A DNA stretch of 64,000 bases from the IMG/VR virus record IMGVR_UViG_3300025536_000012, positions 67,496 through 131,495 of that record; one strand, 5' to 3'. A program made the translations under genes and the position numbers. The notes below the pieces were generated by a model. It had not been told where the DNA came from. It worked only from the letters and a program-made list of their open reading frames with translations, and made no database searches. Every line of letters begins with the position of its first letter. Within the stretch, counting starts at the first letter, position 1. Below, one piece after another: positions 7,651 to 25,428 of this stretch. The stretch is from a virus.

Positions 7651-8009
7651 TCAACCTTTTCTTGAGGGCTTCGTTCAAAACCTTCTTTGCTCCTGCTGGA
7701 AGGGAAGTCACAACAAGCAGTCGATCCAGGAACCCAAGGGCGACTTCTTTGCCTTCCTTCTGTATCTCCCAGACGAAGCCTAGCTTCTTTCCGTTCTCCC
7801 ATTTCATGTCCCGATCGACGGTGAGAGCTCGAAGGGGGGGGGACATCCTCCTTGTCGTTGTCCCAATCGTACCTCGGCTTCCTCGTCTCGAGCCTGGTGA
7901 CGACGCCGTATTTCAGAATTGGACAACGTCCCCAAGAAGCAGCATAGGCGACGAAGCTACCTACCTTGATCTCGGTATCGTTCAAGTCGTAGTGCTTTAC
8001 AGCACTCAT
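7640..8009 (-). pseudogene. hypothetical gene split into two ORFs (7647..8009 and 7640..7846) at a G9 homopolymer
   Basis: both ORFs read through GGGGGGGGG at 7834..7842; a 1-nt length change would fuse them into one protein of about 135 aa. Confidence 0.35.
7834..7842. repeat. poly-G (G9) homopolymer tract
   Basis: nine consecutive G on the plus strand inside a coding region. Confidence 0.9.
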
Positions 8010-9451
8010 TAGTACCTACTCCCTGAGGTCTTGAACTCGATGAGGTACTGTAGGATGTGCTGATGGATACTGTAGACAATGAACTCGTTATGAACGAGCC
8101 AGCGTCCCTTCTTGCCCTGCACGGAGTCGTAACCAGACGGTGGTTTGGTCAGATGGGTCTGAGCATCCTCGTACTCTTTGATCGTTCCGAGGGCAACGTC
8201 GGTGACGAACATGAAGAATGTATCAGCCTTGCCACTTCCTCCACCATATCGACCAAACGAATACTGTTCTGACTTAGAGCTTTGATCTGCGAAGTAGAGA
8301 CCGTTGCCGAACATAGATCCCGTGATGTAGACACCTGGAGGTCTCATCAGAAGACCGTGCTTGCAGATACCGAGGATGTTCTGTGGACCAGATCCGTGGA
8401 ATAGCGGCTTGACGTTGCCAATCTCTTTCATCTTGGGCAGGTGCTTCTCCTTCTGGCCCTTGATTCTGACGCGCCAGATGTTCTGGATTGAAGCTTTCCA
8501 ATCGTGGTGACTCGAGCGTGTCGACGAGTGAAAGTCCTCGATGCGCTTGTAGGCGGGATCGTCCTTCGCCAGATAGACGTACTCGCACCCGATCTCGACA
8601 TACTTCTTCTCGACATCGGTGGACGCAAATCCCTTGACCATGCCTTGCACGTCTGAAAGTAGACCAAGAAGATCTTCCTTCTCATCGAGACGCTTCTCAT
8701 CATTGAGCACCATCGTGGCCAGCCATTCGTCGAGAGCTTTCTTGCCTTCCGATGGCTTTGGCCTGTGGGCAATGGTCTGGGGAATCGCCGAGTAGAACTC
8801 GTTTGACTTCTGAATGAGGTCAGCGTGAATCGTGCTCTTTAGTTTGGGCTTGTCGACAATCATCTGCTGGATCTCTTGCAGGATATTACGCCCGTGGTCG
8901 ATCTGGCTCAGGGTCAATGTACCTAGCGGGTTCTCGACAGAGGTGTTGAGAGTTCCAGAGAGCTGCTGACGAACGGCTTGTCCGGCCTCTGTATAAAGAC
9001 GGTCAACCAGCTTAGCCACCGTCTGATGGATATCGAGCTTGGTCTTCTTCTCGCCCTTATCCTCGGTCTCTCCTTTGACCTTGTCCTTCTTGACGTCGTC
9101 GGACAGGATCTGGGAGTTGGTGACTGCCGAACCAATCTTCGTCGCAGCCATCTTGATCTCGACGTAGCCTTTGCTTGCCTTGGTCTTCTCGGCCTTTAGG
9201 GATTCGAAGGCAGAAAGCAAAGACGCCTCGTCTTGATCAGGGACGCGTTCCTCCTGCATTCCTTCTTGTCCGACTCGGCCGTAACGTGAGTACAGACGGA
9301 ACTTCTTCTTGTCTTTCGAGACATGTGCCTCGATCTGATAGAACTTGTTGTTGCCTTCCTTGAGGTCGGTCTTGTTGAGGGTAGCGACACGAAGGACGTC
9401 ATAGTCCGAAGGGAACGTCATCGTGCCGAACTTCTGTGATCCGAGCTTCAT
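8009..9451 (-). CDS. poly(ADP-ribose) polymerase-like ADP-ribosyltransferase with WGR domain
   Basis: WGR signature 'FYQIEAH...FRLYSRYGRVG'. PARP catalytic motifs 'LFHGSGPQNILGICKHGL', 'GNGLYFADQSSKSEQY' and 'HNEFIVY' form the H-Y-E triad. Likely start is the Met of 'MKLGSQKF', giving an ATGA overlap with the upstream SLOG gene. Confidence 0.8.
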   Translation of the reverse strand: MKLGSQKFGTMTFPSDYDVLRVATLNKTDLKEGNNKFYQIEAHVSKDKKKFRLYSRYGRVGQEGMQEERVPDQDEASLLSAFESLKAEKTKASKGYVEIKMAATKIGSAVTNSQILSDDVKKDKVKGETEDKGEKKTKLDIHQTVAKLVDRLYTEAGQAVRQQLSGTLNTSVENPLGTLTLSQIDHGRNILQEIQQMIVDKPKLKSTIHADLIQKSNEFYSAIPQTIAHRPKPSEGKKALDEWLATMVLNDEKRLDEKEDLLGLLSDVQGMVKGFASTDVEKKYVEIGCEYVYLAKDDPAYKRIEDFHSSTRSSHHDWKASIQNIWRVRIKGQKEKHLPKMKEIGNVKPLFHGSGPQNILGICKHGLLMRPPGVYITGSMFGNGLYFADQSSKSEQYSFGRYGGGSGKADTFFMFVTDVALGTIKEYEDAQTHLTKPPSGYDSVQGKKGRWLVHNEFIVYSIHQHILQYLIEFKTSGSRY

Positions 9452-9996
9452 GAGAAATGCCTTGGGTTGATTCTGTGTATTGGTCGTCTGACTTGTTCCG
9501 CGTACTCGACGCAGTTGTACGTTCCGCCCCTGGATCCATCCCAGACGGCAATGAGGATATCGCAGTTGTCGACCATCCAGCGGTTCCTGCGATCCATCTT
9601 GTGGGCAGAATAACCGCCCCCTGTGACAACGTACTGGCAATAGGCGTGCGCCAAGAGCTCGCGATAGAACTCTTGGGACTCTCTAGGCCATGTAGATTCT
9701 TGGCCTAAAAAGGGGACCGCAGCGATGAATGGGATCTGCATCTCTACGCACGTGAATGCGAAGTCCTGGTCGACGCCTAAGGCCATTCCAGAGATGCAGT
9801 ACTGAGGCTCGAGGAATTCTAGGATGAATCTTATCTTCGAGCGTATCCATTGTCGCTGTGGGGCGTCGAAGTCGTAGCCGCCGATCTTGTCTGGGCGGTG
9901 CCCTGTAACAGCTACAACCCAGGGCTCAATCGTCTTCTCTGACCTCGAGGATTCTTGATATGAGTGCGGTCTTTCCTCCAGGGATCTTGGAAGCAC
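9448..9996 (-). CDS. YpsA-like SLOG-family (DUF1273-like) Rossmann-fold protein
   Basis: 'VVAVTGHRPDKIGG', 'ISGMALGVDQ' and 'NCDILIAVWDG' match the YpsA/DprA-like SLOG pattern. Confidence 0.65.
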   Translation of the reverse strand: MLPRSLEERPHSYQESSRSEKTIEPWVVAVTGHRPDKIGGYDFDAPQRQWIRSKIRFILEFLEPQYCISGMALGVDQDFAFTCVEMQIPFIAAVPFLGQESTWPRESQEFYRELLAHAYCQYVVTGGGYSAHKMDRRNRWMVDNCDILIAVWDGSRGGTYNCVEYAEQVRRPIHRINPRHFS

Positions 9997-11113
9997 CGAT
10001 GATCTCCAGGCCGTAGGTTGCGTACTTACGCAGATCGTCGAGGGATTGCTTGGTCAGTCCGGCCATGTCCAACTTGTTGAGCTTTGCGTAGCCCTTGTTG
10101 GGCTTCTTCTTGACGACGGATTTCTTCTTTTCCTCCGCCTTCTTCGCAGTCGTCTTGACGGCAGCAGTGCTCAACGGACCGTCTTCGTCCTCATCGTCTC
10201 CATCGTCATCTTCATCGATATCCGGCTTTGTATCTTCGGAATCATCATCGTCATCCGGATCGTCCTTGTCTCCATCCCACTCGTCCTCCTTGATCTCCTC
10301 ATCGTCATCAGGTTCTGCTGCGTGTACTTCTGGAGTGGCGGTTGTGGTGTGCTTCGAATACTCGAGATCTCGAATACTGATAGAGGTGGATGGTAGCTCG
10401 GTACCGTAGTTACCGATCACTTTGTACTCACAAACCCGCATCTTTTGAGCACTGCTATCTTGGGGCACGCTTACGACGTGTTCTGGGTCGACTTCGCAAA
10501 CTACGATTCTTCCACCGGAGTGGAATGATCTGACGTATCCCATAGCCCCTACATGAAACCCTTCATCACAGGCTACCATTTGATCATCCGAGATTTTGTT
10601 GCGAAGCATCTTGTTGGTGACACCTGGGCGATTGTCGAATTTCCCTGAATGCACGTCCTTATAGTCCTGCCGCACAGACTTGTACGTAAGGATCTTGCCT
10701 TCTGGAGTGAGCGGGATGTTCGAGTGCTTGAGAAATCCGTAGAGCTGTTGTACCGAACGGTATGAAGGGTTCTTGCTCAAGCGCTCCCAGAAGTTGAAGA
10801 GGATGGTCGGATTCTCTCCGTTGGTAGCCATCGCGACGATTCGAGCCGTGATGTCTTCTGGAACCTCTTCTCCCATATACTTCACGTTATTGCCTTTGAT
10901 CTCGAACTTGTCGTTAGACCAGGTCTCGATGCTCTTGGTCACGGTGAGATGGCCAGGAACGTCGGCCCATCGCTCCTCATGCAGTGCATTTTTCAGGTTG
11001 ATGAAGTGAGGGGATCCCTTCTTCACCACCCATGGTCTACCTTCGTGATAGACCGTAACTGATTCGTCGGAGATCATGAACTTGAATGGGCTATTCGTCG
11101 AAGATGTTGTCAT
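9926..11113 (-). CDS. hypothetical protein with acidic tract and C-terminal Rho-N/SAP-like motif
   Basis: long D/E run; C-terminus 'LTKQSLDDLRKYATYGLEIIGASKIPGGKTALISRILEV' resembles the Rho N-terminal / SAP helix-extension-helix. Confidence 0.45.
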   Translation of the reverse strand: MTTSSTNSPFKFMISDESVTVYHEGRPWVVKKGSPHFINLKNALHEERWADVPGHLTVTKSIETWSNDKFEIKGNNVKYMGEEVPEDITARIVAMATNGENPTILFNFWERLSKNPSYRSVQQLYGFLKHSNIPLTPEGKILTYKSVRQDYKDVHSGKFDNRPGVTNKMLRNKISDDQMVACDEGFHVGAMGYVRSFHSGGRIVVCEVDPEHVVSVPQDSSAQKMRVCEYKVIGNYGTELPSTSISIRDLEYSKHTTTATPEVHAAEPDDDEEIKEDEWDGDKDDPDDDDDSEDTKPDIDEDDDGDDEDEDGPLSTAAVKTTAKKAEEKKKSVVKKKPNKGYAKLNKLDMAGLTKQSLDDLRKYATYGLEIIGASKIPGGKTALISRILEVREDD

Positions 11114-13271
11114 CGTCTTCCTCTTCCTCCTCGTCCTTTATGACTGGAGTTAAATTCTGCGGGCGAACCTTGTCGATCAGTTTGATGTATTCGGCCCAGT
11201 GGATTGAGTTCTTACCCCACAGCTCTGACATCCGGCTCAAGGCTACGAGAGGGTACTTCGCGTAGATATCGTCTCGAGCCTTTAGGGCATCGAACTTGTT
11301 CGTTGCCTTGACCTTCTCGTAGAGCCGACTGATGGCGTTTCTTTGCTTTTCTGGAAGCTTGGAATAGATCCTCTTTGCTTCTCTCTGTCTCTTCAGGAGT
11401 CGAGTGATTGGGTGCTTGACCCCAAACAGATCCAAGGCAACTGTGTAGCTAGATGCCTCACCGTGGTAGTCATTGGTGACAACCACAGCAGCTTCGTACA
11501 CCGCCAATTGCTTCCTGATCTTTTCAATGGCCGCGATCTGGTGAAAGACCTTTTCTCGCCACTCTGGATAATGGGTACCAGTTCTCTGCTCCGGCAGTAC
11601 CGGCTTCTTCTTTGTGCTCTTGTACCCATAGATCTCAGGCATCGTTTCGCCGAGCCCCACGATAATGTCTTTGTCGTTCTTGTACGAGCGATAGATATCG
11701 AACTCGCCTTCGAAGTCCGTCCGAAACCCCTTGAGGATGACAAAGACATCATCCTTCGTAGGAACCCGTTTCTCAATCGTCCAAATGTCAGACCACGGGT
11801 GTGTGAACGCGGCATTGACCTGTAACTTGAATGTGGAGACCCGATGCTTGTCGTTCATCTGCTTGAGCTTCGGAGTTTTGACTGGAGGCGGTGTCCAGTT
11901 CAACGACGATAGCTTCAAAACCGGAACGCCATAGAACCCCAACTTGATCGATAGCTTCTCGAGCTCTTCCTCGACGTCCTCCCACTCCTCTCCATCATTC
12001 ATTCGTACCAGGTAGTCATGGTACTTGAGATCGTGGAATCCAGTTGTGTTGCGAAGATCGTCTCGTAGAAAGATACGAGTGTCGGTGCCGACATAAAGAC
12101 TGGTCGTCTCTGCCTGGGACTGCCAGCTAGTCAGAACGAACGTCTTCGTTTTAGCTTTGTACTCGAGGCTGGTTTCGAGAAGGTCCTTGAACTCCTTCGG
12201 GATCGGAAGTCGAAGGTGGTTGAGGATCTGAGCTCGGACACGTTTCTCCCAGATCGTGACCTTGCTATCGTCCTCTAATGCAGCAATGGTCGTACGAACG
12301 TACTCATCGACCAGGTCGTTGAACTTCTTGATTAGCGCAGCTTTGGTAGAAGTGCTGTACTTGAGTCCTTCACGAGAGGCGCTGACCTGAACGTCTCCGA
12401 TATTGAAGTACAGAACCCCGGAAAGATGCTTGATATGGTTTCCGATACCGCCATCTGGATTGTGTGCTCCTTCTAGTTGATCTAAATCAACCTTGTATGG
12501 AACACACCCCATAACAGCTACCCACTCAGCTGCGCTACCTCTTGAGCTGTTTAGGATTCCATTGGAAAGAATCTGGCGCTCAGCAGGGAGATCCGGAAGC
12601 TTGATATTGATCTCTGGCCTGGGCTCGAAGTACTGAAACAACGACTCAGCCTTCTGGTTGAAGTCCCAGATATCTTCAGGCTTGACCGGGATCTGGATCG
12701 TGATTCCCGTCTCGTCTTCATCGCACTCTTCTTCGTTCAGAAGATTGATGCTGCCCTTGTTCGATTCGTCCAGCACCGCGACGTAGGTTCGACACATCCC
12801 ACCATGCCTGGATGTGATCGTGAAGCTATCGGAATACGCGAAGGCACTCTTGGATCCGATTCCGAATTGGCCGACCACATCATCGCTGTTCCGTTTGGTG
12901 CTTTTACCGTACTGGGTATAGACCTGGAACATGTCAGTCTCGGAAAGCCCTAAACCGAAGTCCTGAATGTAGAGCGTGGGATCTAGCTTGGTTGGAAGAG
13001 TGACCTTGATAGGGAGATCCTTCTTGCCGGCGTCTCTGTTGGCATCCCAAGCATTCGAGGAATATTCCCGAAGAGGGGCGAGCACCTTGTCGGAATACAA
13101 GGTGTCACGAAGGATGGTCATGATGTGGGCAGAGTCATCTCCCGAAATGCCAAACGAGCTACTTGCTGTGACTCCGCTCGATGTCAGCTTTCGTGCAGTT
13201 GAGTTAGAGATCAAAGATCCCTCCTTACTTCTGGGTGATAGTCTGCAACCCCCGTCTGACAGTCCAATCAT
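11091..13271 (-). CDS. GHKL-family ATPase (Hsp90/HtpG- or Topo VIB-like Bergerat fold)
   Basis: N-box-like 'REYSSNAWDANRD', G1 'IQDFGLGLSE', G2 'VVGQFGIGSKSAFAYSD'. Confidence 0.65.
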   Translation of the reverse strand: MIGLSDGGCRLSPRSKEGSLISNSTARKLTSSGVTASSSFGISGDDSAHIMTILRDTLYSDKVLAPLREYSSNAWDANRDAGKKDLPIKVTLPTKLDPTLYIQDFGLGLSETDMFQVYTQYGKSTKRNSDDVVGQFGIGSKSAFAYSDSFTITSRHGGMCRTYVAVLDESNKGSINLLNEEECDEDETGITIQIPVKPEDIWDFNQKAESLFQYFEPRPEINIKLPDLPAERQILSNGILNSSRGSAAEWVAVMGCVPYKVDLDQLEGAHNPDGGIGNHIKHLSGVLYFNIGDVQVSASREGLKYSTSTKAALIKKFNDLVDEYVRTTIAALEDDSKVTIWEKRVRAQILNHLRLPIPKEFKDLLETSLEYKAKTKTFVLTSWQSQAETTSLYVGTDTRIFLRDDLRNTTGFHDLKYHDYLVRMNDGEEWEDVEEELEKLSIKLGFYGVPVLKLSSLNWTPPPVKTPKLKQMNDKHRVSTFKLQVNAAFTHPWSDIWTIEKRVPTKDDVFVILKGFRTDFEGEFDIYRSYKNDKDIIVGLGETMPEIYGYKSTKKKPVLPEQRTGTHYPEWREKVFHQIAAIEKIRKQLAVYEAAVVVTNDYHGEASSYTVALDLFGVKHPITRLLKRQREAKRIYSKLPEKQRNAISRLYEKVKATNKFDALKARDDIYAKYPLVALSRMSELWGKNSIHWAEYIKLIDKVRPQNLTPVIKDEEEEEDDDNIFDE

Positions 13272-14700
13272 CTGGATCCGTGTCGACGTGAAGCGTGATG
13301 TCTCCGAAGTGGTTCTTGAAGTTCTTGATCATTTCATGAACCTTCTTCCGAAGTGTCGGGTGGATGTACTTTCCGGATCGGAGCTCCATCACATAGATGG
13401 CTGCCGGCAAGGCATACGTCACCTGGGTTGGGACTCGAAATCCCAGAGCGGTGTAGTACTGCCTAGGGAGATAGTCCTTGGAAAGGGCTTTGATTCTACC
13501 TGTCTGGATCTCGATGAGTTGTCGAGCCTCTTCCTGAAGACCGTCATCTAGCTGCTCGAGATACCACGACTCGAAGTCGTAGCTCGTATCGAGGAGTGGC
13601 ATACGACAGACGCCATTTCGATGCCGCTGAATGTCCCTGAAAGATCCGAAGTCGAGAAGGAATGTGAAGGTGATTTGCCCTTGATCGGCCATGAGGTGTG
13701 GAAGTACACAACCCTTCGGCCTTTTGTAGTACAGCTTGAAGTAGTTCTTGTAGTTATCGAGCCCAACCACCGACATGATCATGTCTTCTCTTGGGTAAGG
13801 AATGATCGGTTTGGGATAGGCAAAGAGCTCCGCATGTTCCATCTCCCAAGCAGCTCTAGCCTCGTTAGCTTCCTGATCCTTATGCCCAATACCGCTAACA
13901 GAGGCCAGACTCTGCTCGAACCCACTAGCTGGGTACTTCGTGGCTAACATTTTGCTAAGTCCGATGGCGATATTCGCGATCTCCGAAGAAGGGTGATTCC
14001 TCATCATGTTGAGGTGATCGCCGGCCTGACGCAAATTGGTATGCCATGAGAGATGGGCGGTGATACCGGCAGGCAAGAAGCCGCGAAGAACATCGAAGGC
14101 TCTGGCCTTGACTGCCTTCTCGTAGACATCCGGCTTCTCCCCTTCCTTGATGGGGTAGCGTTCGCGGACGGTGGCGGCAACTCGATCTTGATTGTTGGTA
14201 TAGAACGCCATCCAATCGTCCATGATACTCTTCGAGAGAACTGTATTGATTGGATCGACGATGCGCTGCTGCGACATGTCGATGTACCGGGTGCTTGTCT
14301 CCTGTCCGCAGTACAACGGCCAGTCTTGAATTGCCTTGGCGGCCAGCAAGCTGACGTTCTCGATGAACGCCGTGGTGGATCCACAGTCCGCAATGCTCTT
14401 GTGTCCATAGCCGACGTAGAACGACGACATGAACTTGCCGCTACCGGATTTCTTGATCTTCTCGATGTGGGTCTCAGCACTCTCTGCACTACGAGAGTAG
14501 AGGGCCTGGAGCATGGCAACGTCCTCGGGAGAGAGGTCGTCGACGATCATCAACTTCTGCGCTTTGTCAGTCATTTGGTTTCGTTCTCTCTTCTTTAGGA
14601 ACCTGGGGGTAGTATTCTTTGCCCATAATAGACAGAACTTCCCGCCACTTCTTTTCCTCAAGGCAGGGTCTCGTACAACACGCCTCGTGGAAGAATCCAT
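13225..14700 (-). CDS. ThyX-like (Thy1 fold, flavin-dependent thymidylate synthase family) protein, divergent and possibly tandem-domain
   Basis: 'WHTNLRQAGDHLNMMRNHPSSEIANIA' matches the ThyX NxRxLxxF..LR...AQxEI block. 'FRDIQRHRNGV' gives the RHR motif, but the conserved Ser after RHR is absent. Motif order and 491-aa length suggest duplication. Confidence 0.55.
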   Translation of the reverse strand: MDSSTRRVVRDPALRKRSGGKFCLLWAKNTTPRFLKKRERNQMTDKAQKLMIVDDLSPEDVAMLQALYSRSAESAETHIEKIKKSGSGKFMSSFYVGYGHKSIADCGSTTAFIENVSLLAAKAIQDWPLYCGQETSTRYIDMSQQRIVDPINTVLSKSIMDDWMAFYTNNQDRVAATVRERYPIKEGEKPDVYEKAVKARAFDVLRGFLPAGITAHLSWHTNLRQAGDHLNMMRNHPSSEIANIAIGLSKMLATKYPASGFEQSLASVSGIGHKDQEANEARAAWEMEHAELFAYPKPIIPYPREDMIMSVVGLDNYKNYFKLYYKRPKGCVLPHLMADQGQITFTFLLDFGSFRDIQRHRNGVCRMPLLDTSYDFESWYLEQLDDGLQEEARQLIEIQTGRIKALSKDYLPRQYYTALGFRVPTQVTYALPAAIYVMELRSGKYIHPTLRKKVHEMIKNFKNHFGDITLHVDTDPDDWTVRRGLQTITQK

Positions 14701-14773
14701 TGACGGTGTGGCGCACAGTACACTCGAATTCTTTGCCGCAGATGCAGCAGAACAACTTCATGTCTCCAAACAC
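14567..14773 (-). CDS. small Cys-rich zinc-finger protein
   Basis: 'CCICGKEFEC...HEACCTRPC'; lies within the 3' end of the ThyX-like ORF in another frame, so doubtful. Confidence 0.3.
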   Translation of the reverse strand: MFGDMKLFCCICGKEFECTVRHTVNGFFHEACCTRPCLEEKKWREVLSIMGKEYYPQVPKEERTKPND

Positions 14774-15666
14774 TAGATCCTCATCTTCTTCACCGCTTCG
14801 CGCAGAAGCTGACGTTCGGATTCCTCTTCGGCGATCATGGTGTCCATGAGCTCCTGGTTGATGAGATTCCGGATAGACGATTCAACCAACTGTGTCAACG
14901 CTGGAGGAGGCAGAGCATCAAGCTCCCAGGAACTATCTCCGAACTCCTCGATGTAAGCCTTCGCTCGAGAGTCCGTTAGCTTTGCTGGGTTGGGTGGTGG
15001 GTTGTACTTTCGCACCTGCGCAGTGGTCAGAGCTATATTCTTGACCTCGAGCTCCTCTACCCCAAACTCGGTGAGCCTGTCGTCGATATCACGCACCATG
15101 TCTTTCCCGCTTGGGTCGTGATCTCCTAGGTAAAGAAGGATCGGAGTCTTCGTAGAGCCTTCATCGCTCTCTTCTTCGCAAGCTCTCATCATTCGCTCTG
15201 CGGCGTCTTTCATTGCCGAAGCGGAGCTGTAACCTTTGTTGACCATCAAGGTGATATGGAACCGTCGTGCGATTGGCCCTAGGATTCCGGCGAGAGCAGC
15301 CTTCTCGACCCAAAGCTCGACGTGATGGTCTTGTCCCTTCCATCTCGGAAGACGAAAGGAACGTAGGGCTGTATCGACCAGAGCTTCTATGTTCGGCCAA
15401 TCCGAGGGCGTATCTGGCTCTCGGTTACGGTCCTCGATAGCATCCCAGTCTACGAGCCCAGCATAGCGGGCATCGGTCAAAAGGACGGTTAGATTCTTGT
15501 AGTTCTTGACGTTGTTCTCTAGCCATCCACGTGACACGAACTGATAATAGACCTGCCGTGCCGTGAGTTTCTGGTCCGGGTAGTCGTTGACGATTTCTAT
15601 GATCTGATCGATACGGTCCAGTCGATCCTGGCCGATCTTCGTTTCTCTGAACTGGTGCAGTGCCAT
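14773..15666 (-). CDS. Spo11/Topo VIA-like protein (wHTH 5Y-CAP plus Toprim; Mini-A-like)
   Basis: 'LTARQVYYQF' matches the catalytic-Tyr R-x-x-Y-Y motif. 'ELWVEKAAL' gives the Toprim Glu. 'MVNKGYSSA' matches the KGYP region and 'LLYLGDHDPSGKDM' the DxD metal site. Confidence 0.65.
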   Translation of the reverse strand: MALHQFRETKIGQDRLDRIDQIIEIVNDYPDQKLTARQVYYQFVSRGWLENNVKNYKNLTVLLTDARYAGLVDWDAIEDRNREPDTPSDWPNIEALVDTALRSFRLPRWKGQDHHVELWVEKAALAGILGPIARRFHITLMVNKGYSSASAMKDAAERMMRACEEESDEGSTKTPILLYLGDHDPSGKDMVRDIDDRLTEFGVEELEVKNIALTTAQVRKYNPPPNPAKLTDSRAKAYIEEFGDSSWELDALPPPALTQLVESSIRNLINQELMDTMIAEEESERQLLREAVKKMRI

Positions 15667-15732
15667 GGGACAACCTCCAAAAGAAAGTCCGTCAAGTGGA
15701 CGGACGTTTCACAGAATCTATGTCCCACTTCT

Positions 15733-18657: not shown

Positions 18658-18735
<78 letters not shown>

Positions 18736-18944
18736 AGTAAAATGAGATCCTTAGTGAAATGCGCCACCTTCGCGAAGCGTCAGGCCGAAAGCCTGAAGCT
18801 CGAGGGGCATTTCATGTTTGGGTCGTATCCCCTTCACTCGATTCAAACCTGGAACCCGGATACGAAGGTGACCCTGACTTAGGTTGATCTAACCTCATAG
18901 ATCCCAAGTCAGAGCCACCCTAACCAGGTGGCTTTCGACGTTTT

Positions 18945-19025
18945 GGGAGTGTTGATGCCGGTGCATCAGGCCGACTGTAAATCGGTTGCCTTTGGGCAAA
19001 TCAGGTTCGACTCCTGGCTCTCCCA
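18945..19025 (+). tRNA. tRNA-Tyr (GTA), type II
   Basis: anticodon loop CTGTAAA, long variable arm, T-loop GGTTCGACTCC, acceptor GGGAGTG/CTCTCCC. Confidence 0.55.
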
Positions 19026-19068
19026 CTAGATGTTGAATGAACGAAAACCAAGCTTCAGCCTCAATTCT

Positions 19069-19139
19069 GGGGTTGTAGCTCAATGGCAGAGCATCCGGCT
19101 TTTAACCGGTCGACTAGGGTTCGATCCCCTACAGCCCTA
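19069..19139 (+). tRNA. tRNA-Lys (TTT)
   Basis: D-arm GCTCAATGGCAGAGC, anticodon arm TCCGG-CTTTTAA-CCGGT, T-arm TAGGG-TTCGATC-CCCTA. Confidence 0.65.
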
Positions 19140-19151
19140 CTAATGTATTGA

Positions 19152-19223
19152 TCGGGACTAGCACAACTGGTTGTGCAGGGCCTCTGAAGCCCAAGGTTCT
19201 AGGTTCGAATCCTAGGTCCCGAA
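19152..19223 (+). tRNA. tRNA-Gln (CTG)
   Basis: acceptor TCGGGAC/GTCCCGA, anticodon loop CTCTGAA, T-arm TAGG-TTCGAAT-CCTA. Confidence 0.6.
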
Positions 19224-19277
19224 CTGAGCCCAACAAGATCAGTTGGGGTGAAAAACGAATAGTGACGATGACAATTC

Positions 19278-19302
19278 GCGAGGCGGTTCGCCGTCTCGCT
19301 TT
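19278..19302 (+). terminator. GC-rich hairpin with TTCG loop followed by a T-run, between two tRNAs
   Basis: GCGAGGCGG-TTCG-CCGTCTCGC then TTTG. Confidence 0.3.
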
Positions 19303-19375
19303 GCCTCGGTAGCTTACGTGGTGTAAGCGTCCCGCTGAAGACGGGAAGATTTCGGTTCGACTCCGAACTGGGGCA
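19303..19375 (+). tRNA. tRNA-Phe (GAA)
   Basis: anticodon arm TCCCG-CTGAAGA-CGGGA, T-arm TTCGG-TTCGACT-CCGAA. Confidence 0.65.
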
Positions 19376-19380
19376 CTGAT

Positions 19381-19450
19381 AGGAAGCGGTCTGGGACTAA
19401 GACGCTCTCCAAAAGCATCTAGCCGAGTTCAATTCTCGGGCTTCCTGCCA
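19381..19450 (+). tRNA. atypical tRNA-like element with encoded CCA (short, no clean anticodon arm)
   Basis: acceptor AGGAAGC/GCTTCCT plus G and CCA, T-arm CCGAG-TTCAATT-CTCGG; only 33 nt between acceptor and T-stem. Confidence 0.3.
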
Positions 19451-19500
19451 GATTAAAGAAATCAGACGATTCCTTTAAAGCTCCTCGATCACTTTAAAAT

Positions 19501-19572
19501 GCCTCCATAGCTCAATAGCAGAGCACGCCGCTCTTAACGGCACGGTTATCGGTGCAAGTCCGATTGGGGGTA
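19501..19572 (+). tRNA. tRNA-Lys (CTT)
   Basis: D-arm GCTCAATAGCAGAGC, anticodon loop CTCTTAA, T-arm ATCGG-TGCAAGT-CCGAT. Confidence 0.55.
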
Positions 19573-19577
19573 CGAAT

Positions 19578-19651
19578 GGCTTCATAGCTCTCTGGTTGAG
19601 GGCGCTTGCTTGTCACGCAAGATCAGGCGGGTTCGATTCCCGTTGAGGCCG
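19578..19651 (+). tRNA. tRNA-Asp (GTC)
   Basis: anticodon arm CTTGC-TTGTCAC-GCAAG, T-arm GCGGG-TTCGATT-CCCGT. Confidence 0.65.
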
Positions 19652-19656
19652 CGAAT

Positions 19657-19727
19657 GGGCGAGTAGTTCAGAGGGAGAACATCGGGATGGCATTCCGAGA
19701 ACGAGGGTTCGATTCCCTCCTTGTCCA
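19657..19727 (+). tRNA. tRNA-Ala (GGC)
   Basis: G3:U70 in acceptor GGGCGAG/CTTGTCC, anticodon loop ATGGCAT, T-arm GAGGG-TTCGATT-CCCTC. Confidence 0.6.
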
Positions 19728-19893
19728 CGCGCTAGGCTCTGTGCTTTGTAAAACCTCGGTGGCAGCACCGAAGCCTTTAACGGTTCCCCCGCAACGGTTG
19801 AGGCAGCATGGAAGATATACTCTAGATGGCTGGAGCCCTGTTTCGAAAACAGGTGATGCCTACGGGCATGAGGATCGTGACCTCTGTCTTCCG

Positions 19894-19978
19894 CGGAGAG
19901 TATTGCAGCCTTGGTGGCTGTCGCGGTTTGCTAAACCGAGGATTCGAAAGAATGCCGTTCGATCCGGCTTCTCTCCGC
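19894..19978 (+). tRNA. tRNA-Ser (GCT), type II
   Basis: perfect acceptor CGGAGAG/CTCTCCG, anticodon loop TTGCTAA, variable-arm hairpin ATTC-GAAA-GAAT, T-loop TTCGATC. Confidence 0.5.
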
Positions 19979-20172
19979 TACTCGCAGATAACAGGAAGAC
20001 ACGGAACCATGAATGTCTTTTTCTGGTGAATGAACCAACAACGCCCACACCAGAGCTCGGTTCCTTGGATGAATGGTTGAGGATGTTCGCAACCATCTGG
20101 ACAGTGGGCATGGGTGCAATTGTTTGCCTTGTGCCAATCTTCCACCGTTTTCATCGGTGCCCAAATTAACAT

Positions 20173-20244
20173 GGCCTCGTCGGACATTGGCTAGTCCTCT
20201 GGCTTTTCAACCCAGAAAAGAGAGTTCGATTCTCTCCGAGGCTG
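20173..20244 (+). tRNA. tRNA-Glu (TTC)
   Basis: acceptor GGCCTCG/CGAGGCT, anticodon loop TTTTCAA, T-arm GAGAG-TTCGATT-CTCTC. Confidence 0.55.
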
Positions 20245-20309
20245 CGATGAGATAGGATCTAGCTGTACTCGTTGTACGCGGCATCGAAGCCGCAGAAAGC
20301 GAGACAGCG

Positions 20310-20582
20310 ATGAAGACAAGGACTCTCCAGGATGGAATGGCTGTAAAGGTCGCCGATGAACATGGCGTTCTGCACGATGGTCTTGTGACCAACTGCTGGG
20401 GGACACGTGAAGTAGAGGACGGTAAAGCCGGACCCTGCATTAACGTGCTCTTTGTAACGTCAGACAAGTCGAAGCGCGATCAGTACGGCGACCAGATCGA
20501 ACGGCTCTCGTCAACCAGCCACAAGCTGAGTACCGAGGCTCCGGGCCGATTCTGGTATTTCCCAGACGAAGTGTTCGAGTAG
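20310..20582 (+). CDS. hypothetical protein embedded in the tRNA array
   Basis: 90-aa ORF with ordinary composition between tRNA-Glu and tRNA-Ala. Confidence 0.3.
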   Translation: MKTRTLQDGMAVKVADEHGVLHDGLVTNCWGTREVEDGKAGPCINVLFVTSDKSKRDQYGDQIERLSSTSHKLSTEAPGRFWYFPDEVFE

Positions 20583-20646
20583 TTCATCATTGGAGCGACG
20601 CCGAGTAGGGGTCGAAATAGCTTCCAAGTTTCGCTGTCGCGTAGAA

Positions 20647-20715
20647 CGAGTAACATGGGGAGGCCATCGGGATGGTGCACTGCCTTGCAAGCAGAGCTGC
20701 GGGGGTTCAACTCCC
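20647..20715 (+). tRNA. tRNA-Ala (TGC)
   Basis: G3:U70 acceptor GGGGAGG/CCTCTCC, anticodon loop CTTGCAA, T-loop TTCAACT; short D region. Confidence 0.45.
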
Positions 20716-20722
20716 ATCCTCT

Positions 20723-20794
20723 CCACTAGTTTCAGGATGTGGCCTAATGGTAGGGCTCCCCGTTTGGGACGGGGCGACTGGAGGTTCGAGTCCT
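20723..20794 (+). tRNA. tRNA-Pro (TGG)
   Basis: perfect acceptor CAGGATG/CATCCTG, anticodon arm CCCCG-TTTGGGA-CGGGG, T-arm GGAGG-TTCGAGT-CCTCT. Confidence 0.65.
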
Positions 20795-20795
20795 C

Positions 20796-20870
20796 TCATC
20801 CTGACCGAGCTGTAGTTCAGTAGAAGAACGCAAGTCTGGGGGACTTGAGGCCGCTGGTGCGATTCCAGTC
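20796..20870 (+). tRNA. tRNA-Pro (GGG), CCA encoded
   Basis: acceptor CGAGCTG/CAGCTCG, D-arm GTTCAGTAGAAGAAC, anticodon arm CAAGT-CTGGGGG-ACTTG, ends ACCA. Confidence 0.65.
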
Positions 20871-20974
20871 AGCTCGACCAACAACCAACAGCCATCCCGA
20901 AGGCTACGTGATAGGGACGCCTACTACTGAACGATGAGGTGCTTCCCCCGGCACTGAGTTGAAAGGGAAAAACT

Positions 20975-21043
20975 GCGGACGCCTCAAGGTGAGAGGATAG
21001 CTTGCCAAGCTGTCTCTGGCCGGTTCGATTCCGGTCGTCCGCT
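20975..21043 (+). tRNA. tRNA-Gly (GCC)
   Basis: acceptor GCGGACG/CGTCCGC, anticodon arm ATAGC-TTGCCAA-GCTGT, T-arm GCCGG-TTCGATT-CCGGT; compact D-arm. Confidence 0.5.
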
Positions 21044-21083
21044 CTAGTCTCTGCGCTCACTCGTAGAATCCCTACACGCAAAA

Positions 21084-21121
21084 GAAGGTTCGACTCCTTC
21101 ATTCCCCACCTCACGGGGAAT
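21084..21121 (+). ncRNA. tRNA fragment-like element: T-arm followed by an 8-bp hairpin
   Basis: GAAGG-TTCGACT-CCTTC, then ATTCCCC-ACCTCAC-GGGGAAT; no upstream 5' acceptor strand found. Confidence 0.3.
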
Positions 21122-21202
21122 GGCGCCCAGCGGTTGGGCATTTGACTATTAATCAAACAACCATTTGTGGATTTTACACTCGAGCGTTGAGATGATTTTT
21201 CT

Positions 21203-21277
21203 GGGGTCCAATCGTTAAGAAGTCCAACGACGTAATGGTGCGTCCAAGGAGTCTCCGTGCGACTCGGAGGGACCCCT
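21203..21277 (+). tRNA. pseudo-tRNA-like element (75 nt)
   Basis: perfect 7-bp acceptor GGGGTCC/GGACCCC and T-arm CTCCG-TGCGACT-CGGAG, but anticodon region is a 4-bp stem with an 8-nt loop TAATGGTG. Confidence 0.3.
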
Positions 21278-21279
21278 CC

Positions 21280-21368
21280 GGTTCAGTAGCTCTTGGTAGA
21301 GCAAGCCGTCTTATAAACGGTCGCGCTAGATCAGCGCCTAGGTCTGGGTTCGATTCCCAGCTGAACCA
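21280..21368 (+). tRNA. type II tRNA with anticodon TAT (identity uncertain)
   Basis: acceptor GGTTCAG/CTGAACC, D-arm GCTCTTGGTAGAGC, anticodon arm GCCGT-CTTATAA-ACGGT, variable hairpin GCGCT-AGATC-AGCGC, T-arm CTGGG-TTCGATT-CCCAG. Confidence 0.5.
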
Positions 21369-21374
21369 CTTGAT

Positions 21375-21444
21375 GCGTACTGCTGGAGATCAGCACGTCG
21401 GTCTCATAAGCCGAACGTCGTAAGGTGCAAGTCCTTCGTACGCT
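21375..21444 (+). tRNA. tRNA-Met/Ile2 (CAT), second copy
   Basis: anticodon arm TCGGT-CTCATAA-GCCGA, T-loop TGCAAGT; acceptor pairs 6 of 7. Confidence 0.45.
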
Positions 21445-21510
21445 ACTATGCCGGTGCCTTGAAACGGACCTCCGTTGAGGTGGTTACGACAAGGAGAACA
21501 CTGGCGCCAT

Positions 21511-21578
21511 GGCGTGACCTCTGGGAGGAGTGGGCTTTTACATGGCCTGCATGCTCGGTTCAATTCCGAGTCGCGCTA
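21511..21578 (+). tRNA. tRNA-Val (TAC)-like with reduced D-arm
   Basis: acceptor GGCGTGA/TCGCGCT with G-U pairs, anticodon arm GGGCT-TTTACAT-GGCCT, T-arm CTCGG-TTCAATT-CCGAG. Confidence 0.35.
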
Positions 21579-21655
21579 CGACTGATCTAGCATGAGGAAG
21601 GAATAGCACTGACTTTCCTCATATGCCGACTTTGCTGGTCTGCTAGATCAATCAT

Positions 21656-21730
21656 CGAGGTGTGGCTTAGCCTGGCTAGAGCGCCTGCTTCGGGAGCAGG
21701 AGACCGGAGGTTCAAATCCTCTCACCTCGA
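21656..21730 (+). tRNA. tRNA-Pro (CGG)
   Basis: perfect acceptor CGAGGTG/CACCTCG, anticodon arm CCTGC-TTCGGGA-GCAGG, T-arm GGAGG-TTCAAAT-CCTCT. Confidence 0.6.
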
Positions 21731-21731
21731 C

Positions 21732-22022
21732 TTAGTACGAATTGTAGAACCTGATGTGGGTGATGTCTGGATGGTCGTTTAGAAGTCTTTTGACATCGAC
21801 AACGAAACCATCCTCCATCTCCTCCCTCCACTTTTCGACGCAATCCTCTTCCTCGAGCTCGACCTCCACTCCGGCATCATCGGGCGGCTCGTCGTTGAAG
21901 TAATCGGTAACAGCCATTGGGATGGCGGTTCCTGCCACCTCACAGGCGTCGTAGACCGCCTTCATCTTCTTCCATTTCTCGTCGGGTGCTTTGAATCCAA
22001 TGATGTGCGTATTCATTCCCAT
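21732..22022 (-). CDS. hypothetical acidic protein
   Basis: 96-aa ORF immediately downstream of tRNA-Pro. Confidence 0.45.
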   Translation of the reverse strand: MGMNTHIIGFKAPDEKWKKMKAVYDACEVAGTAIPMAVTDYFNDEPPDDAGVEVELEEEDCVEKWREEMEDGFVVDVKRLLNDHPDITHIRFYNSY

Positions 22023-22030
22023 GTTGACCT

Positions 22031-22306
22031 CTATGCGACGTGGATGAACTCAGAGCCTTCCATGCACATGGTAGCGGTTCCGGTTCGGTGCCAACGAACA
22101 GTTGGATGGATTCCGGGTTCGACATGAACGACGACGCCTAGATCTCCAGCTTCCGCATGAACCCAACCTCGGGTACATGGCTTAGCGTTTGGATCTGGTT
22201 CCTCGTTTCCTTCCTCGGTAATTGTTTTGATGGCCTGAACAACATCTCCTTCGTCGACTCCGAAGAGAGGATCGAAGTAGGTTTCGGATTGGCTCGGTGC
22301 TGACAT
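22031..22306 (-). CDS. hypothetical protein
   Basis: ORF 22031..22510 trimmed to the internal Met of 'MSAPSQSETYF', because the upstream part overlaps tRNA-Ile/His. Confidence 0.4.
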   Translation of the reverse strand: MSAPSQSETYFDPLFGVDEGDVVQAIKTITEEGNEEPDPNAKPCTRGWVHAEAGDLGVVVHVEPGIHPTVRWHRTGTATMCMEGSEFIHVA

Positions 22307-22318
22307 TATTTCCTTTCG

Positions 22319-22389
22319 TCCCCATAACACAGCAGTCAGTGTGCATGCCCGATAAGCGTGAAACGAAGGTGCGAATCCTTCTGGGGACA
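22319..22389 (+). tRNA. tRNA-Ile (GAT)
   Basis: perfect acceptor GTCCCCA/TGGGGAC, D-arm ACACAGCAGTCAGTGT, anticodon loop CCGATAA, T-arm GAAGG-TGCGAAT-CCTTC. Confidence 0.65.
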
Positions 22390-22395
22390 CTGTTG

Positions 22396-22472
22396 GTGGT
22401 TGATGCCGAAGTAGCCGAGGCACCTGGTTGTGGACCAGGTTAAAGCGAGTGCAAGTCTCGTCAATCACCCCA
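22396..22472 (+). tRNA. tRNA-His (GTG), CCA encoded
   Basis: anticodon arm CCTGG-TTGTGGA-CCAGG, T-arm GCGAG-TGCAAGT-CTCGT, ends CAATCACCCCA. Confidence 0.6.
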
Positions 22473-22473
22473 T

Positions 22474-22544
22474 GCGGGCTTGGTATATCGGTTGTGCCCG
22501 AGCCTTCCAAGCTTGAGAAAAGGGTTCGATTCCCTTAGCCCGCT
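22474..22544 (+). tRNA. tRNA-Gly (TCC)
   Basis: perfect acceptor GCGGGCT/AGCCCGC, anticodon arm CGAGC-CTTCCAA-GCTTG, T-arm AAGGG-TTCGATT-CCCTT. Confidence 0.55.
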
Positions 22545-22879
22545 CAAATTTCAGGAATTGGTAGTCCTCTAGCTCGTTCTACGTAGGGACTCCACTCGGG
22601 ATGTTTCGCCACGAACTCATCGATCTGTTTCCTGGCCTCATCGCAGTTGTCTGAAACAGGCTGAAGTGGTGTTCCAGCCAAGAACGGTTTCCACTTCGGA
22701 GCCTTGACCTCTAGATTCTCCCAAGGAAGGAACGATGGTCCTCCAGATGCCCCACAACGTCGGCAGCACCAGAAGTACTTTGGATCCTTTACCTCTGGGA
22801 TTCTGACTTCCTCGATCTTCCAGTCATGAGAGAAGTCGGGACGAATCTTGTAGGGCTTCGGTTCATCACTTGCGTGCAT
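22544..22879 (-). CDS. hypothetical protein
   Basis: 111-aa ORF with Trp/Cys-containing ordinary composition. Confidence 0.45.
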   Translation of the reverse strand: MHASDEPKPYKIRPDFSHDWKIEEVRIPEVKDPKYFWCCRRCGASGGPSFLPWENLEVKAPKWKPFLAGTPLQPVSDNCDEARKQIDEFVAKHPEWSPYVERARGLPIPEI

Positions 22880-23132
22880 TCTTTTTGCCCTTCTGGTTCA
22901 ATGGTTCAGAGCGCAACTTTCGTAAAGTTGAGATTCCGGTTCGATTCCGGAGAGGGGCTCTAGGTTCTGAATCGACATGAATAATATATTTGTGATCATC
23001 ACTGCCTAACTCAGCTCTGCCTTTACGAACGGCATTTTCTGGAGTTAGGGCCTTCACTACAATCACCTCATCTTTTTGTAGGCTGGCGATCGTCAAATAC
23101 CATTTCGTTGGCAGACGTTTTCTAACGATCAT
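22866..23132 (-). CDS. hypothetical protein (3' end overlaps tRNA-Thr on the other strand)
   Basis: 88-aa ORF. Confidence 0.3.
   Translation of the reverse strand: MIVRKRLPTKWYLTIASLQKDEVIVVKALTPENAVRKGRAELGSDDHKYIIHVDSEPRAPLRNRTGISTLRKLRSEPLNQKGKKNARK
22887..22959 (+). tRNA. tRNA-Thr (CGT)
   Basis: D-arm GTTCAATGGTTCAGAGC, anticodon arm CAACT-TTCGTAA-AGTTG, T-arm TCCGG-TTCGATT-CCGGA. Confidence 0.65.
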
Positions 23133-23150
23133 TTCCTACTTTCTTATCAC

Positions 23151-23224
23151 TCGGGGTTAGTTCAACTGGTAGTAACGTCAGACTTTGAATCTGAATGTTG
23201 AAGGTTCGAGTCCTTCACCCCGAA
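23151..23224 (+). tRNA. tRNA-Gln (TTG)
   Basis: perfect acceptor TCGGGGT/ACCCCGA, anticodon arm TCAGA-CTTTGAA-TCTGA, T-arm GAAGG-TTCGAGT-CCTTC. Confidence 0.65.
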
Positions 23225-23345
23225 CTATCGCTCATACGCTGGAGGGAACGCCAGCTATTAGGTGAGCGGCCAAGCTGTTCGTAGTCATCGAGTGATGGCC
23301 CCTGTTTTGTAATCAGGAGAGGCGGTGCGACTCCGACGAGCAGCT

Positions 23346-23808: not shown

Positions 23809-23813
23809 CCTCT

Positions 23814-23886: not shown

Positions 23887-23891
23887 CTAAT

Positions 23892-23965: not shown

Positions 23966-23971
23966 CGATTT

Positions 23972-24702: not shown

Positions 24703-24708
24703 CTTCTT

Positions 24709-24780: not shown

Positions 24781-24790
24781 CGATACTATC

Positions 24791-25425: not shown

Positions 25426-25428
25426 GCT

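Follow-up and report, generated by a model that had tools for sequence, protein, structure and literature searches.

A jumbo-phage-like member of the Mini-A family encoded beside an rIIA/rIIB module

Mini-A is a described family of viral Topo VI-A/Spo11-like proteins (Takahashi et al. 2020, PMC7671362). Its members measure ~300 aa, against ~400 for Topo VI-A, and contain the second half of the CAP domain and a Toprim domain, with the motifs RxxYY, E and DxDxxG, and xWELDAL, the subfamily-specific form of the C-terminal T2BI box. They lack the N-terminal segment through which Topo VI-A binds its B subunit (PMC7671362). They have been described from siphophages, proviruses and archaeal viruses. 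The discoverers raised the question of whether there is a ‘Mini-B’ ATPase (PMC7671362), and no member of the family has a reported biochemical activity (PMC7671362, PMC8185306).

Plasmid-borne Topo VIII is likewise a type IIB A-like module on mobile elements without the N-terminal CAP part, but it brings a Bergerat ATPase and transducer of its own, either fused or split, as well as an RVELNAM box, and the protein described here has neither. Compared with Topo VI-A and Spo11, this protein lacks about the first 85 residues, which are B-binding, and a Top6B/Top6BL partner, and it has WELDAL in place of their (R/K)xExx(A/S) box. To our knowledge, the Toprim nucleases of the JetD/MksG (Wadjet) and DUF2399 types have no catalytic tyrosine, and they work with an SMC-like complex. 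Our protein differs from them in its invariant R37 and Y41 and in having no conserved SMC-type partner. It shares with Mini-A the size, domains, motifs and viral origin listed above, and differs from the published members by its genome, a ~212-kb jumbo phage, and by a GHKL gene lying two genes off, here rIIA; nothing else about it is distinctive.

The window, as we call the whole stretch of 64,000 nucleotides analyzed, comes from a 212-kb metagenomic contig that carries a 40-tRNA array, rIIA/rIIB and phage-type neighbors, and it looks like part of an uncultured jumbo phage. An earlier note had paired a 297-aa Toprim protein (14773..15666) with a 726-aa GHKL ATPase (11091..13271). Both ORFs are real at these coordinates and lie on the minus strand; as transcribed, the GHKL gene, called upstream in the note, comes after the Toprim gene. 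They are not chance ORFs, because database relatives are abundant, at least 7,999 at E ≤ 0.001 for the 297-aa protein and 624 for the 726-aa protein. The features of the locus are as follows.

15687..15705, minus strand: hairpin and T-run immediately before the ribosome-binding site of Mini-A; 7-bp stem with 5 G-C pairs, then TTTCTTTTGG
15666..14773, minus strand: Mini-A gene, 297 aa; 5Y-CAP (winged-helix) and Toprim domains, stand-alone
14773..14567, minus strand: small Cys-rich ORF, 68 aa from GTG; no family assigned
14574..13225, minus strand: divergent ThyX-like gene; 449 aa in public gene calls, within an ORF that reaches 14700
13271..11091, minus strand: rIIA (GHKL ATPase) gene, 726-aa ORF
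11113..9926, minus strand: rIIB orthologue, overlapping the rIIA end by 23 nt; phrog_609 RIIB, E 1.1e-66
9996..9448, minus strand: YpsA/SLOG (DprA-like) gene; Pfam YpsA, 5.2e-12
9451..8009, minus strand: gene with WGR, PARP_reg and PARP catalytic domains; Pfam PARP 2.8e-32, WGR 4.8e-14

The Mini-A gene starts with an ATG that has GGAGG 8 nt upstream. The hairpin before it may conceivably terminate an upstream transcription unit; the count of hairpin/T-run sites in this region is not above shuffled expectation. A ThyX-like gene does sit between the pair (Pfam Thy1, E 1e-11, 45.4 bits versus a cut-off of 24.8), as noted earlier, together with a second small conserved gene, the Cys-rich ORF. This ORF lies directly against the Mini-A stop codon, ends in an ATGA overlap with the start codon of the ThyX-like gene, and more likely starts at the ATG at 14760 than at the GTG. 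It recurs at the same position with 64% identity in two relatives of the locus (L085 and L086), and Pfam and PHROG profile searches gave it no family match. The ThyX-like gene was rejected as a ThyX equivalog (TIGR02170, 18.5 bits versus 87.9). Public gene calls shorten rIIA to 707 aa, with the start at 13214. From Mini-A to rIIB, the genes run in the same direction, are tightly packed, and are probably co-transcribed as early genes. Such co-directional packing would fit a degree of functional coupling in this lineage, a point against independence of the two genes.

Its sequence places the 297-aa protein in the described Mini-A family and hence among the Topo VI-A/Spo11-like proteins. All published sequence criteria of Mini-A are found in it, and its length lies within the 289-347 aa of its homologues. 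The strings RQVYYQ, ELWVEKAAL and GDHDPSG singled out in the earlier note are all present, whereas its KGY(P) block is only partly so, as KGY is there but reads KGYS, not KGYP. Among 43 diverse homologues, R37 and Y41 never vary in the motif R37-Q-V-Y40-Y41, with Y40 conserved to at least 90%; E121 and the D182-H-D184-P-S-G187 residues of the Toprim domain are all invariant; and in the T2BI box, S246-W247-E248-L-D250-A251-L252, W, E and D are invariant with A and L at least 90% conserved. The Toprim Glu was rightly sought in ELWVEKAAL, where the invariant residue, which aligns with Spo11 E233, is E121 (in VEK), while E117 is only ~90% conserved.

Database matches agree. PHROG family phrog_6247, ‘DNA topoisomerase’, matches at E 5.3e-88. 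Identity to phage proteins is 36-44%, including 39.9% (E 1e-54) to that of Pseudomonas phage NP1, an exemplar of the Mini-A paper. Further matches are Chi-like Salmonella phages, a Listeria phage and, at 2e-9, the archaeal virus HCIV-1. The AF2 model has a pLDDT of 82.6.

Similarity to Topo VI-A/Spo11 was not found at the HMMER level; the 297-aa protein has no Pfam match at E ≤ 0.1. Profile-profile alignment by HHalign, on the other hand, matches Mini-A to Spo11/Topo VI-A over 246 columns with P of 9.2e-5 and the three catalytic motifs in register, versus P of 0.02-0.4 for reversed and shuffled null controls. It pairs R37, Y41, E121 and D182/D184 with Spo11 R131, Y135, E233 and D288/D290. The catalytic tyrosine, whose lack on alignment would have spoken against the assignment, thus sits on Spo11 Y135. 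In this alignment the first paired positions are residue 6 of Mini-A and residue 86 of Spo11 (profile column 58), which suggests that the N-terminal CAP segment is absent from Mini-A.

We consider that this locus holds a Mini-A family member beside an independent rIIA/rIIB module, not a functional A/B pair (probability about 0.85). Among the alternatives, one concerns what Mini-A does: it could be a replication initiator, which nicks or cuts the phage genome site-specifically and stays attached via Tyr41 rather than managing topology. Published work proposes such a role for skuldviruses of Asgard archaea, which have small circular genomes without other replication proteins, and siphophage Mini-A genes do lie within replication/recombination modules with ligase, a Sak4-like annealing protein, a Cas4-type exonuclease, helicases and primase. 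However, siphophages such as PaMx25 own a polymerase, primase and helicases, and the window has genes for many further functions, so Mini-A can be explained without invoking an initiator; we regard that role as unlikely.

Mini-A could also be a Toprim nuclease of the JetD/MksG type, cutting hydrolytically with no covalent Tyr intermediate and, for example, degrading host or competitor DNA. The weak Pfam matches of the 43 Mini-A members are only to DUF2399, TOP6A-Spo11_Toprim, TP6A_N and JetD_C. Among them, DUF2399, a JetD-like Toprim family, is most frequent (6 of 43 members, best E 1.6e-4) and JetD_C is matched by one member, whereas TP6A_N and TOP6A-Spo11_Toprim are each touched by just two (E 0.009-0.046). 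Moreover, the literature on the family reports neither an ATPase partner nor a topoisomerase activity (PMC7671362, PMC8185306). Yet DUF2399 and JetD_C are themselves Topo VI-A-like Toprim families, and the conserved tyrosine argues against the JetD type, with R37 and Y41 aligning exactly with R131 and Y135 of Spo11. The WELDAL box is also invariant, and its Topo VI-A counterpart contacts the Tyr/Arg pair. A better alignment with OLD, DnaG or JetD Toprims was not seen: no DnaG- or OLD-type match occurred among the 43 members in Pfam, and no PADLOC model, a library that presumably holds Wadjet/JetD and OLD-type Toprims, matched the 297-aa protein at E ≤ 0.1. We consider such a nuclease quite improbable.

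The 726-aa GHKL protein is, judged by sequence, an rIIA orthologue and not a topoisomerase B subunit. It matches phrog_612 (rIIA) at E 3.6e-97 and T4 rIIA with 29% identity over 304 aa (E 4e-29), and its rIIA similarity extends to 2,929 phage records. Like T4 rIIA, it has the Bergerat motifs, nearly the same length (726 versus 725 aa), and an rIIB homologue next to it, identified by the precomputed Pfam PF26926 Phage_T4_rIIB besides phrog_609. The N, G1 and G2 boxes claimed for it are indeed present, and across 120 homologues their residues (E69/N73/D76, D104/G106/G108 and G134/G137/G139) are conserved to at least 95%.

The GHKL and transducer-like module covers ~aa 20-340 of the ORF. Conservation drops beyond ~aa 340, and the C-terminal half is lineage-specific, differing from that of T4 and common only to metagenomic jumbo-phage relatives. 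The C-terminal region of rIIA is known to be highly variable (Iyer et al. 2021, PMC7824862). The nearest solved relatives by sequence in the PDB are Hsp90 N-domains. In the model, the ATPase-plus-transducer module is about as similar to ParE as to Hsp90, Topo VI-B or MutL; the modeled fold is that of a generic GHKL-plus-transducer module, among whose relatives Topo VI-B does not stand out.

Two side observations touch on rIIA. In T4, topoisomerase genes 39 and 60 lie directly upstream of rIIA; and the N-terminal module of rIIA, as modeled, is of the same structural kind as the ATPase-plus-transducer unit of type II topoisomerases. Both weigh against independence.

We then have the proposal of the earlier note, a two-subunit type IIB topoisomerase or Spo11-like machine, in which Mini-A is A, the rIIA-like GHKL protein is a non-canonical ‘Mini-B’, and ATP-driven GHKL dimerization gates cleavage and strand passage. 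The two genes are on the same strand, two genes apart, packed and probably co-transcribed, the ATPase boxes are intact, gene order in T4 is similar (topoisomerase, then rIIA), and the Mini-A paper leaves room for an undiscovered non-canonical B subunit (PMC7671362). However, the ATPase is orthologous to rIIA, Hsp90 gives its best sequence matches in the PDB, and its Topo VI-B identity was rejected at 19.7 bits versus the NCBIfam cut-off of 274. Nor does Mini-A have the N-terminal CAP segment through which Top6B is bound.

An rIIA HMM that detects T4 rIIA at 1.4e-41 placed rIIA no more than 10 kb from Mini-A in the window and its closest relatives, L085 and L087, but in none of the 83 other Mini-A loci. 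Even in these relatives the gap between the two genes varies and has an opposite-strand LigD-like gene inside it in both. Another relative with 64% Mini-A identity (L088) has no rIIA, and a PARP gene follows Mini-A there despite this absence. PaMx25 and Brevundimonas phage Delta, both with complete genomes, have Mini-A but neither rIIA nor rIIB (0/2). Conversely, four jumbo-phage contigs with the same rIIA subfamily and rIIB (L090-L093) have no Mini-A nearby (0/4); all keep ThyX-like/rIIA/rIIB, and three also have SLOG and PARP.

In all seven rIIA loci examined, a Thy1-domain gene is directly upstream of rIIA and rIIB is directly downstream, and PARP is downstream of rIIB in six, none being called in L093. 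T4 has its rIIA/rIIB without this ThyX-like/rIIA/rIIB/SLOG/PARP block. The usual neighbors of Mini-A are SNF2/SF2 helicases, HTH regulators and integrases, with no recurrent GHKL family among them, and no cognate B subunit (GHKL, H2TH and transducer) in tandem and co-inherited with Mini-A was found. Thus, linkage between Mini-A and rIIA is not conserved, and the true conserved partner of the GHKL gene is rIIB. The phyletic pattern strongly disfavors an A/B pair, which we hold to be very improbable.

Least probable of all is that Mini-A was recruited into an rIIA early operon, either as a lineage-specific non-canonical A/B pair with an rIIA clamp or to make breaks read by the WGR-PARP protein; were the pair real, rIIA would be the long-sought ‘Mini-B’, hinting at a DNA-linked rIIA function and echoing the 39/60-then-rIIA order of T4.

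In the reading that we favor, Mini-A would act as a homodimer. Mg2+ would be held by E121, D182 and D184, and Y41, placed by R37 and Y40, would attack the DNA backbone to give a 5′-phosphotyrosyl intermediate, with the WELDAL box as a gate packed on the Tyr/Arg pair of the CAP domain. Because no Mini-A activity has been reported (PMC7671362, PMC8185306), this mechanism is read from the conserved residues. With no ATPase subunit dedicated to it, Mini-A would not be expected to drive strand passage by ATP; its likely role would be to make breaks, or to cleave and religate DNA, during phage replication or recombination. The rIIA and rIIB genes form an independent, well-known module of phage counter-defense, which in this phage group lies within the conserved ThyX-like/rIIA/rIIB/SLOG/PARP block, Mini-A being merely upstream of this block in one sub-lineage.

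The locus had seemed a candidate answer to the ‘Mini-B’ question; with the ATPase being rIIA and the neighborhood unconserved, it gives a negative answer for rIIA as the missing partner, and it offers no easier test than cultured Mini-A phages (NP1, PaMx25, Chi-like). What is new here is a jumbo-phage member added to the known Mini-A family, a very large one by its database relatives, whose members keep the catalytic residues of Spo11/Topo VI-A.

The 297-aa Spo11/Topo VI-A-like protein of the window is a Mini-A, which adds a jumbo-phage member to an already described family. Every gene of the run that it belongs to lies on the minus strand in the ORF map:

15666..14773, minus strand: Mini-A, 297 aa, with GGAGG 8 nt before the ATG
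14773..14567, minus strand: small Cys-rich ORF, 68 aa, adjoining the Mini-A stop, its own stop overlapping the ThyX-like ATG
14700..13225, minus strand: ThyX-like ORF, called start 14574
13271..11091, minus strand: GHKL ORF (rIIA), 726 aa, called start 13214
11113..9926, minus strand: rIIB ORF, 395 aa
9996..9448, minus strand: YpsA/SLOG (DprA-like) ORF, 182 aa
9640..8009, minus strand: PARP-like ORF, called start 9451

As called, the ThyX-like gene and rIIA are 10 nt apart, and rIIA and rIIB overlap. Because its gene ends abut or overlap with so little spacing, the run is probably co-transcribed. A hairpin with a T-run is found at 15687-15705 (minus strand), directly upstream of the Mini-A ribosome-binding site, and a stronger terminator-like site with a 13-bp hairpin at 18204-18176; the number of such sites is not above the shuffled expectation.

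Mini-A was defined as a protein of ~300 aa with Rxx(Y/F)Y, a Glu plus DxDxxG and a C-terminal xWELDAL ‘T2BI’ box, and without the Top6B-binding N-terminal CAP segment (Takahashi et al. 2020, PMC7671362). All five features are found in the window protein, with the motifs R37-Q-V-Y40-Y41, E121, D182-H-D184-P-S-G187 and S-W247-E248-L-D250-A-L252, and the key residues are invariant across 43 homologues that are 37-62% identical to it. The motifs quoted in the earlier note are all present, with two corrections: the KGY block reads KGYS, and the invariant Glu is E121, E117 being only about 90% conserved. The protein of Pseudomonas phage NP1, a Mini-A exemplar in the same paper (PMC7671362), matches the window protein at E 1e-54 (tblastn).

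The window Mini-A has no match among Pfam, NCBIfam and PADLOC models, and the PHROGs family phrog_6247, ‘DNA topoisomerase’, takes it in at E 5e-88. A protein search returned at least 7,999 relatives at E ≤ 0.001. At less than 60% identity, Mini-A is found by tblastn in 79 GenBank phage records (27.6-44% among the matches listed); most of those listed are phages of 35-88 kb, many of them with the annotation ‘DNA topoisomerase’, and the archaeal virus HCIV-1 is also listed. Some homologues of 330-347 aa (e.g., P0026, P0036, P0043, P0054, P0077 and P0103) carry zinc-ribbon-like CxxC...C..C patterns in a Toprim insertion of ~40-50 residues, at about columns 165-225 of the homologue alignment A1, after the KGYSS helix region and before the DxD strand; unlike them, the window protein lacks this insertion.

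Mini-A has zero matches among PDB sequences at E ≤ 10 with phmmer and two profile searches, and Foldseek found nothing among PDB structures at E ≤ 0.001 for its AF2 model. When the Mini-A profile was aligned by HHalign with a single Spo11 sequence (E 0.44) or a fungal-only Spo11 profile (E 0.056), the Toprim motifs were correctly aligned without significance. A broader profile was built from a yeast Spo11 bait, verified as residues 127-398 of 8urq_A, whose homologues carry Pfam TP6A_N and TOP6A-Spo11_Toprim; the resulting profile retrieved 3,962 representatives, 143 of which were used. Among the Spo11 templates tried, only this broad profile gave significance, with P 9.2e-5 and a probability of 59% over 246 columns, compared with P 0.41 for the reversed template and 0.019-0.065 for eight block-shuffled templates. 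LTARQVYYQ is aligned to TTVRDIFYS, putting R37/Y41 on Spo11 R131/Y135, and the same alignment puts E121 on E233 and D182/D184 on D288/D290.

The earlier note had asked whether the Toprim would align better with OLD, DnaG or JetD proteins. No DnaG- or OLD-type Toprim model matches any of the 43 Mini-A members (Pfam, E ≤ 1), and their weak matches at this threshold are confined to DUF2399 (6), TOP6A-Spo11_Toprim (2), TP6A_N (2) and JetD_C (1). Mini-A differs from JetD in retaining the catalytic tyrosine. The in-register HHalign together with this restricted set of Pfam matches places Mini-A, by sequence comparison, in a Topo VI-A/Spo11/JetD-like CAP-Toprim assemblage. Its identification in the earlier note is borne out by the five published features, the NP1 match and this alignment.

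The same note had proposed that Mini-A and the nearby GHKL ATPase could form a two-subunit type IIB topoisomerase or a Spo11-like DNA-breaking machine. The GHKL protein turned out to be rIIA. The rIIA profile phrog_612 matches its residues 23-387 at E 3.6e-97 (PHROGs), T4 rIIA (725 aa) is 29% identical to it over 304 residues (BLASTP, E 4e-29) with Bergerat motifs in common, and rIIB follows it directly (phrog_609 at 1e-66; PF26926). By tblastn it is found in 2,929 phage records; among the matches listed, many are annotated rIIA or N4 gp33-like, and the similarity is always confined to the N-terminal part. The N, G1 and G2 boxes that had been reported are present, and E69/N73/D76, D104/G106/G108 and G134/G137/G139, respectively, are at least 95% conserved in 120 homologues, which argues that the window rIIA is probably an active ATPase.

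The Topo VI-B profile check goes against the proposed partnership, as the NCBIfam model scores the GHKL protein at 19.7 bits versus a cut-off of 274. Its top matches among PDB sequences in a profile search are Hsp90/TRAP1 N-domains, at about 1e-6. Comparison of the rIIA module gave paired values of 14.6 and 259 for ParE 43K, 14.5 and 260 for T6 topo II ATPase, 14.5 and 276 for TRAP1, 14.2 and 294 for Top6B, 12.6 and 244 for MutL, and 12.4 and 238 for MORC3. As modeled, the rIIA N-terminus belongs to the generic GHKL-plus-transducer (GHL) type and shows no specific affinity to Top6B. This agrees with the literature, where rIIA is described as having a GHKL ATPase at its N-terminus and a C-terminus that varies strongly (PMC7824862). 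In the literature, rIIA/rIIB has been linked to counter-defence.

Linkage was examined from both sides. In a diverse set of 80 viral Mini-A loci, each with flanks of up to 10 kb, an rIIA HMM made from 120 sequences, which detected T4 rIIA as a positive control at 1.4e-41, found rIIA (E ≤ 1) on no contigs other than the window's own and those of the close relatives L085 and L087. The interval between Mini-A and rIIA holds an 82-aa ORF and an opposite-strand LigD-like gene in L085, and a NUDIX gene, a 165-aa ORF and an opposite-strand LigD-like gene in L087. The 121-kb contig L088 (Mini-A identity 64%) has an ABC/SMC-like ATPase after Mini-A, with PARP next, and its locus has no ThyX-like gene, rIIA or rIIB. 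The complete genomes of PaMx25 (57.9 kb) and Brevundimonas phage Delta (87.2 kb) contain Mini-A and no rIIA or rIIB. When the window's rIIA, rIIB, ThyX-like and PARP proteins were compared with 84 Mini-A loci by BLASTP and again with HMMs, only self or near-self matches were obtained. From the other side, four contigs of 115-220 kb with full-length rIIA relatives (L090-L093) all keep the Thy1-domain/rIIA/rIIB order; YpsA and PARP are retained in three of them, and NADAR in two of these three. None of the four has Mini-A within 10 kb.

The genes that recur around Mini-A encode SNF2 and other SF2 helicases, HTH regulators and integrases. When 125 representative large neighbors were scanned with Pfam, no GHKL family was matched by two or more proteins, in agreement with the original survey, where no Bergerat-fold protein was near Mini-A genes (PMC7671362). 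Mini-A sits next to an ordinary rIIA/rIIB pair, which is a separate module, and the GHKL partnership is not supported. That rIIA is nevertheless a ‘Mini-B’ partner is very improbable; it keeps some residual probability because of the probable co-transcription, the topoisomerase-like fold class of rIIA and the gene order in phage T4. There (L094, 12-5328), rIIA.1 and rIIA are immediately preceded, on the same strand, by the topoisomerase II genes 39 and 60, an order that parallels the topoisomerase-like gene, small genes and rIIA-rIIB of the window. This likeness may be a coincidence or a common early-gene layout.

The ThyX-like gene between Mini-A and rIIA is divergent, as had been noted: it passes Pfam Thy1, over only residues 60-257 of the 491-residue ORF, and falls far below the TIGR02170 ThyX equivalog cut-off. 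A Thy1-domain gene of 250-459 aa, usually about 450 aa, is directly upstream of rIIA-rIIB in seven of seven rIIA loci (window, L085, L087 and L090-L093), and it may encode a modified-pyrimidine enzyme instead of a plain thymidylate synthase. ThyX-like genes also adjoin or sit near Mini-A in Brevundimonas phages and PaMx25. A general association was rejected, since Thy1 occurs once among the 125 neighbors scanned, and the proximity is therefore read as common membership of nucleotide/replication modules.

Other neighbors were recorded. The 68-aa ORF, with the Cys pattern CCICG...C...CC..PC, is squeezed in between Mini-A and the ThyX-like gene, where stop and start codons overlap, and is 64% identical to ORFs at the same position in L085 and L086; public gene calls miss it on the window's own contig (L003, L004) and, for L085 and L086, include its 82-aa homologue. 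The PARP (8009-9451, minus strand; Pfam E 2.8e-32) is eukaryote-type, with WGR, PARP regulatory and PARP catalytic domains, and is conserved across the jumbo-phage group (window, L085, L087, L088, L090, L091 and L092), usually preceded by the YpsA/SLOG gene and followed by NADAR in L090 and L092. Phage PARPs are mentioned in PMC7824862. An adenylosuccinate-synthetase-like gene, beside a Dam-type methyltransferase and a DnaJ-kinase fusion, lies about 3-5 kb upstream of rIIA in L090, L091 and L092; no such gene was seen in the window. In phages, PurA-like genes can be a sign of PurZ and 2-aminoadenine DNA.

The source is best interpreted as an uncultured jumbo phage. A protein identical to the window Mini-A was found on a 212-kb metagenomic contig, and the window also encodes 40 tRNA genes, rIIA/rIIB, a DNA ligase and a sigma-like factor. 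The 6.1-kb region has no megablast match among GenBank phages, so there is no close cultured relative. The tRNA array (18658-29450, plus strand) covers nearly all amino acids, and for two neighboring predictions at 29297-29450 the anticodon is called as an odd four-base ‘aatg’. Neither Pfam nor PHROGs gives a match at E ≤ 0.001 for four large plus-strand ORFs at 45377-49102, 49556-50905, 50906-54418 and 57717-59861 (1241, 449, 1170 and 714 aa), and a sigma-70 region 3 match lies beside them at 56088-56969.

Mini-A conserves the metal ligands and the WELDAL box along with the Tyr/Arg pair, all of them collinear with Spo11. We conceive that it would act as a homodimer, in which Y41 would attack DNA in a Mg2+-dependent manner and form a 5′-phosphotyrosyl link like that of Topo VI-A and Spo11. 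The WELDAL Glu may gate the Tyr, after the T2BI box of M. jannaschii Top6A, which has been described as doing so (PMC7671362). Directional strand passage would not be expected, because Mini-A has no ATPase and transducer. Candidate roles of Mini-A are break formation for recombination-dependent replication, nicking/religation and replication initiation.
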